This document shows, piece after piece, positions 291 to 44,728 of a DNA stretch of 44,728 nucleotides. The stretch is from Escherichia phage ULINTec6, in the sequence record MZ997840.1; one strand, given 5' to 3'. Position numbers and translations under genes: made by a program. Every line of letters begins with the position of its first letter. The first letter of the stretch is position 1. The notes under the pieces were generated by a model. That model did no database searches and had not been told where the DNA came from. It worked only from the letters and a program-made list of their open reading frames with translations.

Positions 291-306
291 GTCTCACATG
301 TTAGAC
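291..306. repeat. Degenerate copy (GTCTCACATGTTAGAC) of the dispersed 16-bp palindrome
   Basis: 15/16 match to GTCTCACATGTGAGAC found six times elsewhere. Confidence 0.4.
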
Positions 307-3294: not shown

Positions 3295-5922
3295 ATGCAA
3301 GACCTACACGCTATTCAACTTCAACTTGAAGAAGAAATGTTTAACGGCGGTATCCGTCGCTTTGAAGCGGACCAACAACGCCAGATTGCATCCGGTAATG
3401 AATCAGACACGGCATGGAATCGCCGCTTATTGTCCGAACTAATCGCACCTATGGCTGAAGGTATTCAGGCATACAAGGAAGAGTATGAAGGTAAAAGAGG
3501 CCGTGCACCGCGTGCATTGGCTTTCATTAACTGCGTAGAAAACGAAGTGGCAGCATATATCACGATGAAAATCGTTATGGATATGCTGAATACAGACGTT
3601 ACCTTACAAGCTATCGCTATGAATGTAGCGGACCGCATCGAGGACCAAGTACGTTTTAGCAAGCTGGAAGGTCACGCAGCTAAGTACTTTGAGAAAGTAA
3701 AGAAGTCACTTAAGGCGAGCAAGACGAAATCTTATCGTCATGCACACAACGTAGCGGTAGTGGCTGAGAAGTCTGTAGCTGACCGCGACGCGGATTTCTC
3801 CCGCTGGGAAGCATGGCCTAAAGATACCTTGCTGCAAATCGGTATGACCTTGCTCGAAATCTTGGAGAATAGCGTATTCTTCAATGGTCAACCTGTCTTC
3901 CTTCGTACCTTGCGCACTAACGGCGGCAAACATGGTATCTACTACTTACAGACTAGTGAGCACGTAGGCGAGTGGATTACAGCGTTCAAAGAGCACGTAG
4001 CACAACTAAGCCCAGCTTATGCACCTTGCGTTATCCCTCCGCGCCCTTGGGTGTCTCCTTTTAATGGTGGGTTTCACACTGAGAAGGTGGCTAGCCGCAT
4101 CCGCCTTGTTAAAGGCAACCGTGAGCACGTCCGTAAACTGACCAAAAAGCAGATGCCAGCAGTTTACAAGGCCGTTAACGCTTTGCAGGCGACTAAATGG
4201 CAGGTTAACAAGGAAGTATTGCAGGTGGTAGAGGACGTTATACGTCTCGACCTCGGCTATGGTGTACCTTCCTTTAAACCACTAATCGACCGCGAGAACA
4301 AACCGGCTAATCCCGTGCCGTTAGAATTTCAGCACCTTCGCGGACGTGAACTGAAAGAAATGCTTACGCCGGAACAGTGGCAATCCTTCATTAACTGGAA
4401 AGGTGAATGCACCAAGCTGTACACCGCAGAAACTAAGCGTGGCAGCAAGTCGGCGGCTACGGTCCGCATGGTTGGTCAGGCCCGTAAATATAGCCAGTTC
4501 GACGCAATCTACTTCGTGTATGCACTGGACAGCCGCAGCCGCGTCTACGCGCAATCTAGCACTCTCTCACCGCAATCAAACGACTTAGGCAAGGCACTCC
4601 TACGGTTTACCGAAGGGCAGCCGCTAAATAGCGCTGAGGCGCTTAAGTGGTTTTTGGTGAACGGAGCTAATAACTGGGGTTGGGATAAGAAAACTTTCGA
4701 CGTGCGCACCGCTAACGTGCTGGACGGCGAGTTTCAAGACATGTGCCGCGACATTGCAGCGGATCCTCTGACCTTCACTCAATGGGTAAATGCCGATTCC
4801 CCTTATGGCTTCCTTGCATGGTGCTTTGAATATGCGCGTTATCTGGATGCACTGGATGAAGGCACGCAAGACCAATTCATGACGCACCTCCCAGTCCATC
4901 AAGATGGTAGTTGTTCTGGTATCCAGCACTACAGTGCTATGCTACGCGATGCAGTAGGTGCGAAAGCAGTAAACCTTAAGCCCTCTGACTCCCCTCAAGA
5001 TATTTATGGTGCCGTTGCGCAGGTAGTAATTCAGAAGAATTATGCATACATGAATGCAGAGGATGCGGAAACCTTCACTTCTGGCAGCGTGACTTTAACA
5101 GGTGCGGAACTGCGTAGCATGGCTAGTGCGTGGGATATGATAGGAATCACTCGCGGCCTGACCAAAAAGCCCGTAATGACACTACCTTACGGCAGCACAC
5201 GTCTAACCTGCCGTGAGTCAGTGATTGATTATATCGTTGATTTAGAAGAAAAAGAGGCCCAACGGGCTATTGCGGAAGGGCGTACCGCCAACCCTGTACA
5301 TCCTTTTGATAATGACCGTAAGGACAGCCTGACACCTAGCGCAGCTTATAACTATATGACAGCTCTAATCTGGCCTTCTATCTCGGAAGTGGTTAAAGCT
5401 CCTATAGTGGCAATGAAAATGATTCGTCAGCTTGCACGTTTCGCAGCTAAAAGAAACGAAGGCTTAGAATATCCCTTACCAACTGGCTTCATCTTGCAAC
5501 AAAAGATAATGGCTACCGATATGCTCCGCGTATCCACTTGCTTGATGGGTGAAATCAAGATGAGTCTCCAGATTGAAACAGATGTAGTTGATGAAACGGC
5601 AATGATGGGTGCGGCTGCTCCTAACTTCGTCCACGGTCACGATGCTAGCCACCTGATTCTGACTGTATGTGACCTAGTGGATAAAGGTATTACATCCATT
5701 GCAGTCATCCATGATTCTTTCGGTACTCATGCAGGGCGTACCGCAGACCTGCGGGATAGCTTAAGGGGAGAAATGGTTAAGATGTATCAAAACCATAATG
5801 CCCTGCAAAACCTGCTAGATGTGCACGAAGAGCGTTGGTTAGTAGACACCGGAATCCAAGTACCAAAGCAAGGGGAGTTTGACCTTAACGAAATCTTAGT
5901 TTCAGACTATTGTTTCGCATAA
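3295..5922 (+). CDS. Phage single-subunit DNA-dependent RNA polymerase (T7 gene 1 family)
   Basis: 875 aa; C-terminus ...[12 protein letters not shown] matches T7 RNAP ...LRDILESDFAFA; [18 protein letters not shown] and IHDSFGTH catalytic motifs present. Confidence 0.97.
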
Positions 5923-5930
5923 TATTAATA

Positions 5931-5965
5931 GGCCATTCCTTCGGGAGTGGCCTTTCCTTTTACCT
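5931..5965 (+). terminator. Intrinsic terminator after the RNAP gene (9-bp stem, UUCG loop, U-rich tail)
   Basis: ggccattcc-ttcg-ggagtggcc followed by tttccttttacc, immediately after the RNAP stop; analogous to the T7 early terminator. Confidence 0.65.
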
Positions 5966-5995
5966 ACTACCTGTAACATTTCATTAACATAAAGT

Positions 5996-6011
5996 GTCTC
6001 ACATGTGAGAC
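5996..6011. repeat. 16-bp perfect palindrome GTCTCACATGTGAGAC (copy 1), immediately upstream of a phage promoter
   Basis: Read directly; one of six near-identical dispersed copies. Confidence 0.8.
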
Positions 6012-6013
6012 TT

Positions 6014-6036
6014 ATTTACCGGACACTATAGGATAG
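6014..6036 (+). promoter_or_regulatory. Phage RNAP promoter (ATTTACCGGACACTATAGGA)
   Basis: Match to the SP6-type consensus GACACTATAG with upstream ATTTAC. Confidence 0.75.
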
Positions 6037-6186
6037 CCGTCGGAGACGGGAAAGAAAGGGAAGATAAAGGATATAAAGGAAGTAATAGGTATTAAAGGTT
6101 ATATAGGTTATCTAGGAATACCTAGGAATACCTATTACCTTCTTCCTTCCTCTTATTACCACTTAGAGGAAGGGCAGACCTAGGTT
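6034..6186. other. Candidate primary origin of replication (purine-rich/AT-rich segment with inverted and direct repeats between two phage promoters)
   Basis: ggaaagaaagggaagataaagg purine tract, inverted repeat gaagtaataggta ... tacctattaccttc, direct repeat aggaatacct x2; sits between RNAP and gene 1.1 as the T7 primary origin does. Confidence 0.45.
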
Positions 6187-6202
6187 GTCTCACATGTGAG
6201 AC
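6187..6202. repeat. 16-bp palindrome GTCTCACATGTGAGAC (copy 2)
   Basis: Read directly; again followed by a promoter-like sequence. Confidence 0.8.
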
Positions 6203-6207
6203 TTCGT

Positions 6208-6230
6208 ATTTACCGGACAGTATAGATAAG
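6208..6230 (+). promoter_or_regulatory. Phage promoter variant (ATTTACCGGACAGTATAGATAAG)
   Basis: One substitution in the core (GACAGTATAG); precedes the gene 1.1-like ORF. Confidence 0.5.
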
Positions 6231-6255
6231 ACTAACTTACTTTGGAGATTTAACC

Positions 6256-6393
6256 ATGCGTAACGTAGAAAAGATTACCCGTAGAAGCCGTCATGAGTGC
6301 GATGTAGATATTAGCACCCTTAAGAATCGTGCCAAAAAGTGGGTACAACAACGCGGCGGTGTCAATCGTAATATGAAACGTAATTGGAACTAA
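6256..6393 (+). CDS. T7 gene 1.1-like small basic protein (45 aa)
   Basis: MRNVEKITRRSRHE... resembles T7 gp1.1 (MRNFEKMTKRS...) as I recall it; GGAG RBS; directly after RNAP and origin region. Confidence 0.6.
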   Translation: MRNVEKITRRSRHECDVDISTLKNRAKKWVQQRGGVNRNMKRNWN

Positions 6394-6403
6394 AGGGCAG
6401 ACC

Positions 6404-7557
6404 ATGGCTATTATTAATAACATCCCATGTCCTCAATGTCAGAAGAATGGACACGATAAATCAGGCAACCACCTTATGATATTCGAGGATGGTGCTGGGT
6501 ACTGTAACCGTGGTCACTTCCATGATAATGGCAGACCTTACTACCATAAGCCTGAAGGGGGCATCGAGATAACCGAGTTGCCTATTACTGGCAATATCAA
6601 ATATACACCTTCCCAGTTTAAAGAGATGGAGAAGGAAGGGAAGATTAGCGACCCTAAGCTACGCGCCATCGCACTTGGTGGTATGCGTATGAAAGACCGT
6701 TGGGAGGTTATGAATGAGCAAGAAAGGGCAGACCAAGAAACAGAGTGGAAACTTGATGTTGAATGGTTCCTCACGCTTAAGCGTAAGAATCTTGTTTCCC
6801 GACACATTCGCGGCGACATTTGCGCATTGTATGATGTACGGGTCGGACACGATGAAGAAGGTAGAGTCTCACGGCATTACTATCCACGCTTCGAAAAAGG
6901 TGAGCTAGTAGGCGCTAAGTGTCGCACATTACCTAAAGACTTTAAGTTTGGTCATTTAGGTAAACTATTTGGTATGCAAGATCTTTTCGGTATGAATACT
7001 TTGTCTCACGTGTTAGACAAGGGAAGACGAAAGGATTGCTTGCTTATTGTCGGCGGCGAACTGGATGCACTAGCAGCACAGCAAATGCTCCTTGATTCTG
7101 CCAAGGGTACTAAGTGGGAAGGCCAGCCTTACCATGTATGGTCTGTCAATAAAGGTGAGTCTTGCCTTGAAGAGATAGTACAGAACCGTGAACACATCGC
7201 CCAATTTAAGAAGATTATATGGGGTTTTGATGGAGATGAGGTAGGGCAGAAGCAGAATCAGCAAGCGGCTCGCCTGTTTCCTGGCAAATCCTATATCCTT
7301 GAGTACCCTTCTGGTTGCAAAGATGCCAACAAGGCATTGATGGCTGGCAAGGCTAAAGAGTTTGTTGATGCATGGTTTAATGCCAAGTCATCTGATGAAG
7401 TCTTTGGTAGCCAGATTAAATCTATCGCATCTCAAAGGGATAAGCTCAAGGCTGCACGTCCAGAGCAAGGACTATCATGGCCTTGGCCTAAGCTGAACAA
7501 GGTAACGCTAGGTATTCGTAAGAACCAACTTATCATTGTAGGCGCAGGCTCTGGCGT
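6404..7557 (+). CDS. Primase-helicase (T7 gene 4 family), exon 1: zinc-ribbon, TOPRIM primase and start of the helicase P-loop (GAGSGV)
   Basis: IPCPQCQKNGHDKSGNHL...YCNRGHFH zinc ribbon and LLIVGGELDALA / FDGDEVGQ / CKDANKALM TOPRIM motifs match T7 gp4; the reading frame hits a stop 7 codons after GAGSGV. Confidence 0.85.
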
Positions 7558-8344
7558 TAACATTAGCGCCGCCATGTAGTAATACATGGGCAATAATCGT
7601 GTGAACTCAGGGGAAGACTAGAACAGTTAATCCTGAGCCAAGCTAGGCACACCTCAAATTCAAAGGAGGTGTTATGCAATTTAAAGAAGTACCAGATCAC
7701 AGTAATTATATTTGTTATGAGAATGGCACGGTTGTTAATCGTAAGACTGGAAAGGTCTTGAAAGAAGATACAACTAACCGAGGTTATAAGCGGATTACAG
7801 TAAGCAAGGGCAACAAGGTAACACGTTGGAGTGTGCACCGTTTAGTTGCTTTACTGTTTATCCCTAACCCTCATAATTATGAAACTGTTAATCACATATC
7901 GGGAGATAAGACGGATAACTCTGTTAGTAATCTTGAGTGGATGAGCCAAGAACAGAACCAAGCCCATGCTAAATATACAGGACTGTGTCCTAAAGGTGAG
8001 GCTGTTGGCACTAATAAGTTCAAAGAGGCAACTATTCAGCAAGTGTGCAAGCTAATAGAGAAAGGTTTATCTCGCGGTGAAATTATGAAAGCAACGAGCA
8101 TCTCTAAAGCAACCTTTGATGACATTCGTAGAAGGAAGACTTGGAAGCACGTATCTTGTTCATATAAATGGTGACAATCTGGTGTGCCTAGAAGGTGCAA
8201 CGACTATCCCGAAAGGGAGTACAGCCAAGCGGCTGGAAGCGCACGACACCCATCGTGGGTGATGATATAGTCTGGTCTATATGGGGACATATAGCAGTTC
8301 ATAAGAGAACGGGCGTGGCTTAGCGAACCACGTCGAACATAACG
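7558..8344 (+). mobile_element. Putative self-splicing group I intron (787 nt) interrupting the helicase Walker A motif, with an HNH homing endonuclease ORF in the P6 loop
   Basis: Exon end GGCGU 7553-7557 pairs with GCGCC 7566-7570 (P1, U-G at splice site); P-like CTCAGG 7606-7611 pairs with Q-like AATCCTGAG 7629-7637; R-like GTGCAACGACTATC 8195-8208 and S-like GATGATATAGTCTGG 8261-8275 form P7 (GACTA/TAGTC); intron ends with G 8344; splicing restores GAGSGVGKTEF. Confidence 0.75.
7674..8174 (+). CDS. Intron-encoded HNH homing endonuclease (166 aa)
   Basis: HNH motif VHRLVALLFIPNP...VNHISGDKTDNSVSNLEWMSQEQN; own RBS AAAGGAGGTG; C-terminal helix-turn-helix-like region. Confidence 0.85.
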   Translation: MQFKEVPDHSNYICYENGTVVNRKTGKVLKEDTTNRGYKRITVSKGNKVTRWSVHRLVALLFIPNPHNYETVNHISGDKTDNSVSNLEWMSQEQNQAHAKYTGLCPKGEAVGTNKFKEATIQQVCKLIEKGLSRGEIMKATSISKATFDDIRRRKTWKHVSCSYKW

Positions 8345-9170
8345 AGGTAAGACTGAGTTCCTCCGCGAAGTGGTTAAACACCTCATTGAAGAGCACGGTG
8401 AATCTGTAGGCATCATTTCTACAGAAGACCCGATGGTCAAGGTGTCCCGTGCTTTTATCGGTAAGTGGATTGATAAGCGCATTGAGTTACCGCCAACCAA
8501 TGACCCGAAAGAAGACGGATACCGTGAGGTGTTCGACTACACCGAGGAAGAAGCTAACGCTGCCATTGATTATGTGGCTGATACAGGAAAGCTATTTGTG
8601 GCCGACCTAGAAGGCGACTATTCTATGGAGAAGGTAGAGCAAACTTGCCTAGAGTTTGAGGCTATGGGCATTTCTAATATCATCATTGATAACTTAACGG
8701 GGATTAAATTAGATGAGCGTGCTTTTGGTGGGAAGGTTGGTGCACTTGATGAATGCGTCAAACGAATTGGTACTATCAAAGACCGACATGCGGTTACGAT
8801 TTTCCTTGTCTCTCACCTTACACGTCCTCCGGCAAACCGTACCCAACACGAAGAAGGTGGCGAAGTTATCCTTTCTGACTTCCGAGGCTCAGGCGCTATC
8901 GGATTCTGGGCATCTTACGCCTTGGGGATTGAGCGTAATACAAGAGCTGAAACGCTTGATGAAAGGACTACCACGTACATCTCGTGTGTCAAAGACCGCG
9001 ATCAAGGTGTGTGGACTGGCACTAAAGTGAAACTTAAAGGGGATATGACCACAGGTAGGTTATTGGAATGGGAAGATCGTGTTTCTAGATTTGACACAGG
9101 TATACCTAAGGAGCAAAGTGTACCTGATGAAAACACAGGAGAGTTGAATGAAGAAACTTCAGAGTTTTGA
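8345..9170 (+). CDS. Primase-helicase exon 2: remainder of the helicase domain, beginning (A)GKTEFLREV...
   Basis: In-frame upstream extension of the 8370 ORF reads GKTEFLREVVKHL, the second half of the Walker A motif; DnaB-family blocks LVSHLTRP and ILSDFRGSGAIGF match T7 gp4 helicase; no canonical start codon of its own. Confidence 0.8.
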
Positions 9171-9639
9171 GGAAGCAGGATATGTCGTCAAGGAAGACGG
9201 CACGATCTTAAACCCAAAGGGTTTAGTCAGAAAACCATCCTTCGCAGGTAAGAATGTTAAATACTATGTAGTATCTTGGAGGGATAAACATTCTAAGAAA
9301 ACAATCATAGATTTAGTTCACAGATTGGTTGCTAAGAAGTACATACCTAATCCACATGGTTTACCAGAAGTTCATCATAAAGACTTTAATCCTCTTAATT
9401 GTCATAAGGATAATTTGGAATGGACAGATGGGAAAACCAATTGTGAGTATAGTTATTCCAGGGTAGAGGCTGCGCTTGCACGAAGTGCTACCTTACTCTC
9501 ACCTGATGGGGTTAAGCATGAGGTATTTAATGTTCGTAAGTTCTGCCGTGAACATAGCCTCAATCCACCTAGCATATTTGAAGTGCTTAGTGGTAAGCGT
9601 AAATCACACAAAGGATGGACTATTTACCGGACACTATAG
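9148..9639 (+). CDS. Free-standing HNH homing endonuclease (163 aa)
   Basis: HNH motif VHRLVAKKYIPNP...VHHKDFNPLNCHKDNLEW; GGAGAG RBS; overlaps the helicase stop; the last codons are encoded by the phage promoter at 9622-9644. Confidence 0.8.
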   Translation: MKKLQSFEEAGYVVKEDGTILNPKGLVRKPSFAGKNVKYYVVSWRDKHSKKTIIDLVHRLVAKKYIPNPHGLPEVHHKDFNPLNCHKDNLEWTDGKTNCEYSYSRVEAALARSATLLSPDGVKHEVFNVRKFCREHSLNPPSIFEVLSGKRKSHKGWTIYRTL

Positions 9640-9817: not shown

Positions 9818-9834
9818 TGTATTTATCAGGGCTT

Positions 9835-9850
9835 GTCTCACATGTGAGAC
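9835..9850. repeat. 16-bp palindrome GTCTCACATGTGAGAC (copy 3), extended stem gcttgtctcaca/tgtgagacaggc, followed by TCTTATT
   Basis: Read directly; hairpin plus U-rich tail is terminator-like. Confidence 0.8.
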
Positions 9851-9889
9851 AGGCTCTTATTAAGTACATTAAATAACTGGAGATTGATT

Positions 9890-11040: not shown

Positions 11041-11050
11041 GTAAAGGGTT

Positions 11051-11066
11051 GTCTCACGTGTGAGAC
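11051..11066. repeat. Palindrome variant GTCTCACGTGTGAGAC (copy 4), extended stem ggttgtctcac/gtgagacagcc, followed by TTTCATCAT
   Basis: Read directly. Confidence 0.7.
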
Positions 11067-11097
11067 AGCCTTTCATCATATTGATTGGAGGTGCATT

Positions 11098-14229: not shown

Positions 14230-14252
14230 ATTTACTGGACACTATAGAAGGA
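14230..14252 (+). promoter_or_regulatory. Phage RNAP promoter (ATTTACTGGACACTATAGAAGGA)
   Basis: Full consensus match. Confidence 0.8.
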
Positions 14253-14316
14253 AAGCCTAGGTAATCTAGGTTTATAAGGTAGTATAGGTAATTAAGTAAA
14301 TATAGGAGATATAAAT

Positions 14317-14694
14317 ATGTCTATGGTAACTACTCTGGTATTCGTGGCTCAATACTTTCGTGGTCTGGCTAATAAGTTCAAGTCCAAGGCCATCAAAGCT
14401 ATTGAGGCTCGCATCGAAGCAGTACAGGCAGAGCAAGTTAAAGTTGAAGAACATCGTAGTTCTCAAATGATTGACTGCCACAACCGATACTATGTATCTC
14501 GTGATGACCTTAATGCACGCCAAGTCAAAGAGGTTGAAGATATGATGGCACGTCACCAGCAAGAGCGTGACAGCCTGAAAGCTGAATTTGAAGAGAACAA
14601 GGCATCCATTGCCCTTGTACATCAAGCTGCATCTGACAGTCTGAAGAAAGAGATTGTTATGCTGGAAATCGAACTGGATAACCTGACCAAATAA
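14317..14694 (+). CDS. Hypothetical coiled-coil protein (125 aa)
   Basis: ORF track; AGGAG RBS. Confidence 0.5.
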   Translation: MSMVTTLVFVAQYFRGLANKFKSKAIKAIEARIEAVQAEQVKVEEHRSSQMIDCHNRYYVSRDDLNARQVKEVEDMMARHQQERDSLKAEFEENKASIALVHQAASDSLKKEIVMLEIELDNLTK

Positions 14695-16198: not shown

Positions 16199-16214
16199 GT
16201 CTCACACGTGAGAC
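16199..16214. repeat. Palindrome variant GTCTCACACGTGAGAC (copy 5), just upstream of a phage promoter
   Basis: Read directly. Confidence 0.7.
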
Positions 16215-32774: not shown

Positions 32775-32791
32775 TACCTAACTCAAGGCTT

Positions 32792-32807
32792 GTCTCACAT
32801 GTGAGAC
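32792..32807. repeat. 16-bp palindrome GTCTCACATGTGAGAC (copy 6), extended stem, followed by TCTTTAT
   Basis: Read directly; between two internal virion protein genes. Confidence 0.8.
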
Positions 32808-32838
32808 AGGTCTTTATGATAGGCACTATGGAGGAACT

Positions 32839-44640: not shown

Positions 44641-44728
44641 CTGAGGCCATTCAGGGCGTTTATGAGGTATTGACAGGGTGGATGGGTGTGGGCTATCTGT
44701 TCGTTTCGTTCACTCCGCTTGCGCTACG

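Follow-up and report, generated by a model that had tools for sequence, protein, structure and literature searches.

The genome of Escherichia phage ULINTec6 (sequence record MZ997840.1; 44,728 bp, analysed here as one window) contains a 333-bp gap (5923-6255) that separates the RNA polymerase gene (3295-5922) from a 45-codon open reading frame (ORF; 6256-6393), with the primase gene next at 6404. Comparison with phage T7 and with related genomes suggests, with the chances about evenly balanced, that this gap is the conserved post-RNA-polymerase control region of SP6-type phages, the counterpart of the T7 phi1.1A/R1.1/phi1.1B segment, and acts as a transcription-activated origin of replication. 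By this comparison it appears to be a variant of the T7-type promoter-driven origin/control region, with periodic repeats and dispersed hairpins that are not found in T7. The window covers the whole genome of a Vectrevirus (K1-5/K1E group, SP6 supergroup, Autographiviridae); it opens immediately right of the left terminal repeat, and its nearest relative is Escherichia phage ULINTec7.

From 5' to 3', the gap holds a terminator hairpin, a near-invariant block, a 16-bp palindrome (PAL1), a phage promoter (P1), a small 5' hairpin, an array of AGG-centred units and the pyrimidine arm of an inverted repeat, followed by a second hairpin, a second palindrome (PAL2), a second promoter (P2) and the ribosome-binding site (RBS) of the 45-codon ORF (Table 1). 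This ORF matches the Pfam family PF08200 (Phage_1_1) with 22.2 bits (cut-off 21), and its N-terminus reads MRNVEKITRRS, compared with MRNFEKMTKRS in T7 gp1.1 (BLASTP). A first-pass annotation of the sequence had proposed a primary replication origin here, and the elements it listed are all found in their places, far above chance.

Table 1. Features of the region behind the RNA polymerase gene and related elements elsewhere in the ULINTec6 genome
Feature	Position	Strand	Remarks
Terminator-like hairpin	5930..5963 (stem 5930-5953)	+	10-bp stem, 6 G-C pairs, T-rich tail TTCCTTTTAC
Near-invariant non-coding block ACCTGTAACATTTCATTAACA	5969..5989	+	upstream of PAL1; unique in genome
PAL1	5996..6011	.	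core only, no flanking stem
Promoter P1 ATTTACCGGACACTATAG	6014..6036 (18-mer 6014-6031)	+	exact consensus; +1 = G at 6031
Small 5' hairpin CCGUC-GGA-GACGG	6037..6049	+	+7 to +19 of predicted P1 transcript
Array of eight AGG-centred units	6057..6134	+	spacing 11, 9, 10, 9, 9, 9, 10; TRF period 9-10
Long imperfect inverted repeat	6076..6144	+	purine arm / pyrimidine arm, ~17 bp plus apical stem
Second hairpin CCUUCCUCU ... AGAGGAAGG	6145..6173	+	9 nt, 100% complementary
PAL2	6187..6202	.	core only; absent at this site in KPN7
Promoter P2 ATTTACCGGACAGTATAG	6208..6230 (18-mer 6208-6225)	+	C-to-G at -5; +1 = G at 6225
Gene 1.1 homologue, 45 aa	6256..6393	+	RBS GGAG 6244-6247 ahead; primase gene 6404 after
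Left-end palindrome copy GTCTCACATGTTAGAC	291..306	.	hybrid of two half-site types; upstream of early sigma-70-type promoters
Primase palindrome copy	7003..7018	.	inside primase coding sequence, residues LSHVLD
Extended hairpin, core 9835-9850	9828..9857	+	7-bp flanking stem; between helicase/HNH region and next gene
Extended hairpin, core 11051-11066	11044..11073	+	upstream of small gene preceding DNA polymerase gene
Core-only palindrome copy	16199..16214	.	15 nt upstream of promoter 16230
Extended hairpin, core 32792-32807	32785..32814	+	upstream of large internal virion protein gene
Promoter plus 9-bp-periodic AGGTAAT repeats	14230..14316 (AT-rich 14247-14316)	+	leader of ORF 14317-14694

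The phage promoter has 12 matches in the genome, against 0.02 expected, and a promoter for the phage's own polymerase, a component of T7-type origins, is present by sequence in both copies (P1 exact, P2 with one mismatch). The 18-mer of P1 is the same as that of the promoter at 9622, and P1 is kept in all genera aligned; it appears to be a consensus phage promoter firing into ~190 nt of non-coding sequence. P2, 30 nt ahead of the gene 1.1 homologue, is the predicted proximal promoter of this gene and of the primase gene. The C-to-G change that had been seen in its core is real, since the other 11 promoter copies all have C at this position. P2 is off-consensus in every lineage compared, and the altered core position varies by lineage (SP6 and Koku CACTATTG; KpZ1 CACTCCAATAG; Ulitu01 GCACCACAGA).

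In T7, the region of phi1.1A and phi1.1B contains the primary origins, a T7 promoter is essential to every origin, and phiOR and phi6.5 are named as further origins (PMC8373140). ULINTec6 shares with the T7 primary origin the slot after the RNA polymerase gene and before gene 1.1, the two tandem rightward phage promoters, the distance of ~14-15% from the left genome end, and a weak duplex no more than 60 nt past a promoter (0.06 percentile at phi1.1B, 0.05 at P1). The promoters are 194 bp apart here and 75 bp apart in T7, those of ULINTec6 each follow a 16-bp palindrome of a kind absent from T7, and the T7 early terminator TE lies 1.7 kb further on, whereas the early terminator of ULINTec6 is ahead of the region. 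The earlier claim that the locus mirrors the T7 primary origin is thus borne out for position, promoter pair and weak duplex, but not for the palindromes or the direct repeat.

For each phage promoter, 60-bp windows that begin no more than 60 nt downstream were compared, and candidate origins were ranked by the least stable of these duplexes, expressed as a percentile of genome windows. In the T7 control, phiOL (0.00), phi1.1B (0.06), phi6.5 (0.08) and phiOR (0.32) are the top four of 17 promoters; we count phiOL as a T7 origin too and take it to be a secondary one. The duplex after P1 (60-bp window from 6060 onwards) has a percentile of 0.05 in ULINTec6, second among 12 promoters. Its counterparts rank first in KpZ1 (0.07) and in Ulitu01 (0.00, the weakest duplex in the genome), second in SP6 (0.09), and third in K1-5 (0.08) and Koku (0.22). 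P1 is therefore among the top three promoters in six of seven genomes and leads in two distant lineages. Right after the promoter lies an easily melted AT-rich segment, as in T7-type origins, and because the criterion that ranks the T7 origins top puts P1 second of 12, a T7-type transcription-activated origin at the P1 module is plausible.

Two other measures were tried and dropped. The GC-skew change point falls at 6040 in ULINTec6, 6030 in K1-5 and 5840 in SP6, with block-permutation p values of only 0.03-0.34; it was discarded because the T7 change point is at 1080 and not at the origin, and because the pattern is not reproduced in Koku or KPN7. R-loop propensity, calculated as RNA-DNA hybrid energy minus duplex energy, places the 60 nt that follow P1 at the 0.13 percentile, ahead of the other 11 promoters, but the positive control failed: T7 phi1.1A and phi1.1B fall at the unfavourable 78th and 97th percentiles.

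The weak duplex coincides with a repeat array (6057-6134) that holds an AT-rich core (6060-6120) and a 10-bp duplication (6114-6133). The core is 73.8% AT (top 0.2% of genome windows), and the purine tract at 6040-6115 is 73.7% purine (top 0.1% of windows; genome maximum at 6021). The spacer between the promoters had been described as AT- and purine-rich, which is true of this tract and core but not of the 150-bp spacer overall, where AT content is only 60.7% compared with 54.9% for the genome (14th percentile). Chains of at least five [AT]AGG[TA] units at 8-11-bp spacing occur twice in the genome, each just past a promoter, and were absent from 200 shuffles. Periodic self-similarity at a lag of 9-10 after P1 is in the top 0.01% in ULINTec6 and Ulitu01 and in the top 0.04% in KpZ1.

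Two further repeats had been put forward as parts of the origin. The direct repeat AGGAATACCT is indeed present in tandem, at 6114 and 6124, but is no origin feature, as K1-5 has a single copy; T205P4 has an insertion of a different 10-nt unit. The repeat appears to be a recent lineage-specific tandem duplication within a degenerate 9-10-bp array. The inverted repeat (GAAGTAATAGGTA at 6079 and TACCTATTACCTTC at 6129) also exists, with extended arms (6076-6093 and 6127-6144) of 18 nt that are 89% complementary; as an origin structure it is ambiguous, because it resembles the T7 R1.1 hairpin equally.

The array also recalls iteron and DNA-unwinding-element origins, which belong to plasmids and bacterial chromosomes: it consists of short AT-rich tandem repeats near helical phase, non-coding and beside replication genes. 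It is not an iteron-type origin, however, since its units are 9-11 bp long, degenerate, and different in sequence between lineages. Iterons are 17-22 bp long, in contrast to the degenerate 9-10-bp units seen here, and between lineages only the period and position are conserved and not the repeat sequence. There is no gene for a Rep-type initiator, and a Pfam search of the neighbouring ORFs finds no Rep-like domain.

The layout of the region is widely conserved. The intergenic sequence is 92-98% identical in ~75 K1-5/K1E-type records and ~70% identical over ~290 nt in SP6, a high level for DNA that does not code, and an alignment gives the same element order in K1-5, T205P4, SP6, Kenya-K30, GRNsp03 and two Klebsiella Ulipvirus phages. 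KPN7, whose RNA polymerase is 69% identical, keeps the whole layout except PAL2. KpZ1 (Gajwadongvirus; polymerase 46% identical) and Ulitu01 (Colwellvirinae, with a Pseudomonas host; polymerase 42% identical) have the same plan in an entirely different sequence. In KpZ1 the terminator and the phage's own palindromes come first, and P1 is then followed by five repeats of 10 bp (AGTAAGCTAT), hairpins, a palindrome and a P2 that departs from the consensus; a strong terminator-like hairpin separates the repeats from P2, so the P1 unit of KpZ1 would be non-coding. In Ulitu01 a terminator and a palindrome precede P1, which is followed by ~ten AGTAG units spaced 9 bp apart and, 370 bp further along, by a palindrome and an off-consensus P2. 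The repeat sequence thus varies by lineage (AGGTA, GTAAGCTATA, AGTAG), and in KpZ1 and Ulitu01 the repeats are kept and the long hairpin is not.

Conservation extends upstream of PAL1. The hairpin stem at 5930-5953 follows directly on the RNA polymerase stop codon at 5922, covaries between genera in a multi-genus alignment, and has an annotated terminator as its equivalent in the KAW1A4500 record; host-polymerase early transcription probably ends here. The block at 5969-5989 is almost unchanged across Vectrevirus, Zindervirus and Ulipvirus, and its KpZ1 counterpart (TTCTCATTAAC) likewise stands ahead of the KpZ1 palindromes.

If the region works as an origin, phage RNA polymerase starting at P1 would open the weak repeat array, as at T7 origins, the P1 transcript would serve the phage DNA polymerase as a primer, and the primase-helicase would load onto the displaced strand. 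The region would then be one of two transcription-activated origins, the other being a module of the same type at 14230. The P1 transcript would also fold into a long R1.1-like hairpin and may be processed there or stabilise RNA.

Several observations weigh against an origin at P1. The case for origin function is one of analogy only, and the duplex-stability values depend on the nearest-neighbour energies adopted. In KPN7 the duplex after P1 is at the 1.27 percentile, seventh of 10 promoters. The AT-rich segment of the T7 primary origin comes after the second promoter, whereas here it lies between the two, and that origin is without a strong 9-10-bp periodicity comparable to the array. All five pairs of the small 5' hairpin are kept in eight sequences, with a G-C pair replaced by A-U in T205P4 and by U-A in KPN7 (CCUUC/GAAGG), and such covariation argues that the P1 transcript matters as RNA. 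Repeats run straight into an RBS in three of the four promoter-plus-repeat modules examined, and a pure mRNA-leader role would explain the RBS-joined modules equally well. The module at 14230 outscores P1 on the duplex criterion in ULINTec6, SP6, K1-5 and Koku. Lastly, a bidirectional origin of SP6 has reportedly been placed at the DNA polymerase gene, on the basis of skew and with a second-hand attribution to Dobbins et al. 2004 (PMC4837284); this is the sole statement on the matter in the open papers searched, which contain no mapped origin of an SP6/K1-5-type phage.

The RNA-level evidence makes it possible, if tentatively so, that the gap is purely a transcription and RNA-processing junction without an origin role. 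The terminator would end early transcripts, P1 and P2 would start middle ones, the purine/pyrimidine hairpin would be an RNase III-type element like T7 R1.1, and the AGG repeats would be Shine-Dalgarno-like leaders. In T7, the R1.1 hairpin forms in the stretch of transcript that separates phi1.1A from phi1.1B. The predicted stem at 6076-6144 has the form of a T7-type RNase III site, an irregular intergenic hairpin of ~20 bp, and resembles R1.1 in being a stable irregular hairpin between two promoters with a comparable fold score (z = -2.73 for the segment between P1 and P2; z = -2.47 for the T7 R1.1 segment). A long-hairpin equivalent exists in four Molineuxvirinae lineages despite differing arm sequences, the 5' hairpin covaries as described above, and the modules at 14230 and in Ulitu01 lead directly into an RBS, which at 14230 is the last repeat unit itself.

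Other features fit a processing junction less well. The hairpin has no sequence likeness to R1.1, its stem is longer and built of purine/pyrimidine repeat arms, and, unlike the repeats, it is not kept in KpZ1 or Ulitu01. The 9-10-bp spacing has no obvious meaning in RNA but matches the helical repeat of DNA. In KpZ1 the terminator-like hairpin parts P1 from the gene, and in ULINTec6 the long stem is almost without G-U pairs, so that the RNA strand is not favoured. No Rfam family scores above its gathering threshold anywhere in the genome, and the matches that the region does have, to microRNA-precursor hairpins, are at chance level. When the multi-genus alignment was folded as a consensus, only weak structure resulted, as the repeat units align ambiguously; the RNA folds were therefore made lineage by lineage. 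The second hairpin has counterparts in SP6, GRNsp03 and KPN7.

The module at 14230 is a rival or secondary origin candidate, and it may be asked whether it is the main origin, with the 6-kb region at most secondary. We consider this unlikely, although the module has much in its favour. No duplex in the genome is weaker than the stretch after 14230, and the same holds for the syntenic stretch in SP6 and Koku (0.00 percentile); the promoter after the DNA polymerase gene (14230 in ULINTec6, 12542 in SP6, 12580 in K1-5, 35323 in Koku) ranks first or second in five Molineuxvirinae (these four and KPN7). AGGTAAT repeats with a 9-bp period are present at 14230 too, the module is conserved in K1-5, SP6 and Koku, and the location agrees with the SP6 origin suggested at the DNA polymerase gene. 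A degenerate half-palindrome (GTCTAACATG) adjoins the promoter. However, the weakest duplex of T7 is not at its primary origin: it follows phiOL, a secondary origin, and duplex rank consequently does not identify the primary one. In addition, the module on the RNA polymerase side has the same position in all six lineages, whereas the second module moves, from behind the DNA polymerase gene in Molineuxvirinae to near the right end in Ulitu01, where exactly two promoter-plus-repeat modules occur. The 14230 repeats also double as leader and RBS of ORF 14317.

Possession of more than one promoter-plus-weak-duplex module per genome is itself a property shared with T7 (phiOL, phiOR, phi6.5), and 14230 is also a gene leader, like phi6.5 and phiOR. 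The two modules of ULINTec6 differ from these in sharing an AGGTAAT-like 9-bp period, as T7 periodicity is modest and strongest at phiOR. On sequence alone, either the P1 or the 14230 module may be the primary origin.

The palindromes had been taken as a mark of the origin, in the form of a duplicated palindrome-promoter unit. The 16-bp palindrome GTCTCACATGTGAGAC is perfect at both PAL1 and PAL2, the promoter following after 2 or 5 nt, and both pairs are therefore present. They are, however, two independently dispersed elements standing side by side: nine of the 12 phage promoters have no palindrome, which rules out the palindrome as a promoter component, and five of the eight palindromes have no phage promoter. 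The eight genome matches (0.18 expected) are syntenic in K1-5, SP6, Koku and, with the exception of PAL2, in KPN7, and one of them is inside the primase gene. Thus, the 16-bp palindrome is not an origin-specific mark. The T7 genome has no such palindrome family, and the exact string was not found in the open literature searched, which did not cover the primary genome papers (Dobbins 2004, Scholl 2004, Scholl and Merril 2005).

The core is genus-specific and its arms change together: GTCTCAC/GTGAGAC in Vectrevirus, GTC(C/T)AAC/GTTGGAC in the others, GTCTAGT/ACTAGAC in KpZ1, and Vectrevirus arms around a centre of 3 nt instead of 2 in Ulitu01, which has one copy inside its RNA polymerase gene. 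The 16-mer in the primase gene outlasts synonymous drift of the neighbouring codons in SP6, Koku and KPN7, and an Asn-to-His change in Vectrevirus tracks the half-site type of the genus. In five genomes, the core at three of the sites stands on flanking stems of 5-7 bp, with 24 G-U and no A-C among 94 pairs. Runs of flanking pairs are 5-7 long on the + strand (3 at one KPN7 site) and mostly 1 on the - strand; at 9828-9857 there are seven consecutive pairs on the + strand compared with one on the -, with compensatory changes relative to SP6. Because the flanking stems pair only with + strand G-U, the element would be a + strand hairpin, with RNA as the simplest form. Most probably, a putative sequence-specific factor reads the family in this hairpin form at transcription-unit boundaries.

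Read as intrinsic terminators, the palindromes give mixed signals. A terminator pattern scan flags PAL1 and PAL2, but their stems have only 6 bp with three G-C pairs. Downstream of the extended copies the sequence reads UUAUU, UUUCAU or UUUAUG in place of a U-run, and KPN7 shows no U-rich tail. A flip of wobble polarity left and right of P1, as expected of lagging-strand-template hairpins, was considered and rejected: left-end copies show T-G in Koku and L020-L022, and C-A in SP6, KPN7 and L023. Two more local features of the family were observed. At K1-5 9570-9585, the site before the DNA polymerase region, the core is of the SP6 type (GTCCAACGTGTTGGAC, compared with GTCTCACGTGTGAGAC in ULINTec6), with four coordinated differences within 16 bp and flanks almost identical to those of ULINTec6. 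Ulitu01 has two palindrome copies in a 55-bp tandem duplication (9167-9238), followed by a run of 13 C.

As an alternative to a + strand hairpin, the palindromes at P1 and P2 might be duplex operators for a dimeric phage protein that regulates or insulates promoters and origin, possibly an SP6-type substitute for T7 lysozyme-polymerase control. This is doubtful. Drift has changed the flanks but not the core sequence, and the left-end and primase copies mix half-sites (GTCTCAC, GTCTAAC, GTCCAAC) in combinations that do not pair (C-T, A-G, C-A), which suits an operator; the Asn-to-His change in primase follows the half-site type even though a pair is broken. Four of the eight copies are 2-60 bp upstream of a promoter, and core type tracks phage lineage and not host, as Koku and KpZ1 both infect Klebsiella and have different cores. 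Against it, the flanking stems pair on the + strand alone, the 3-nt centre between identical arms in Ulitu01 fits a loop readily but a dimer poorly, and the distance from palindrome to promoter varies (2, 5, 15 and 9 nt). A Pfam search of 18 small early/middle ORFs found no DNA- or RNA-binding domain that could belong to a palindrome-binding protein.

Dispersed promoter-stem-loop motifs (PeSLs) are known from T4-like phages (PMC4122927). These and bacterial REP palindromes appear to have in common with the present family a short conserved palindrome at gene or module boundaries, often abutting a promoter. The copies described here would differ in being strictly syntenic across genera and subfamilies, and in having a sequence-conserved core with genus-specific variants and one copy within a coding sequence.

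A broader and rather improbable reading joins the two elements: the SP6 supergroup (Molineuxvirinae, Gajwadongvirus, Colwellvirinae) would share a boundary-hairpin system together with promoter-repeat origin modules that occur twice per genome. The hairpin, 16-17 nt of the form GTC(N4)-loop-(N4)GAC at 7-10 syntenic boundary sites, including some inside essential coding sequences, would be read as RNA or single-stranded DNA by a putative phage factor. The modules would be iteron-like transcription-activated origins with 9-10-bp repeats, unlike the T7 design, and the palindrome pair flanking the P1 module would delimit the origin. Neither boundary hairpins nor promoter-repeat modules of the SP6 supergroup are described in the open literature searched, to which the primary genome papers did not belong.

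That the P1 transcript is a stand-alone regulatory RNA, whose AGG/AGGA units titrate a host factor (the anti-Shine-Dalgarno or a CsrA-type protein), is very improbable: it has eight purine-rich AGG units and a stabilising 5' hairpin, and the P1 unit of KpZ1 stops at a terminator-like hairpin ahead of any gene, but the repeats differ by lineage and hence offer no common RNA-binding motif, GGA is in only five of eight units, rarer in SP6 and absent in KPN7 (by reading the sequences), and the purine arm in Molineuxvirinae is mostly sequestered in the long hairpin.

Some features of the surrounding genome were also observed. The primase/helicase gene is split into a Toprim part (6404-7579), an ORF for an HNH+HTH endonuclease (7674-8174) and a DnaB_C part (8370-9170). 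K1-5 has a single gene of 662 aa, KpZ1 is similarly split, and in the ULINTec7 record the insert is labelled a phage intron. A second HNH/NUMOD-like endonuclease ORF (9148-9639), with weak Pfam matches below the gathering score, is located just past the helicase part. The left end has tandem repeats at 44-144 (23-24 bp, ~4 copies) and 241-267 (9 bp), upstream of the left-end palindrome and the early promoters. ATCTGTT, the heptamer of the class II signal for pausing and termination of T7 RNA polymerase at the concatemer junction, has its single + strand occurrence at 44695-44701, ~30 nt from the right end and within the terminal repeat.

SP6/K1-5-type phages are used in phage therapy against K1-capsule strains and are the source of SP6 RNA polymerase. 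The analysis offers two precise candidate modules, 6031-6134 and 14247-14316, chosen by a ranking that puts the known T7 origins first, which allows origin mapping in these phages to be targeted. The hairpin, conserved in position across the supergroup, is a concrete lead to what may be an undescribed layer of gene or replication control.

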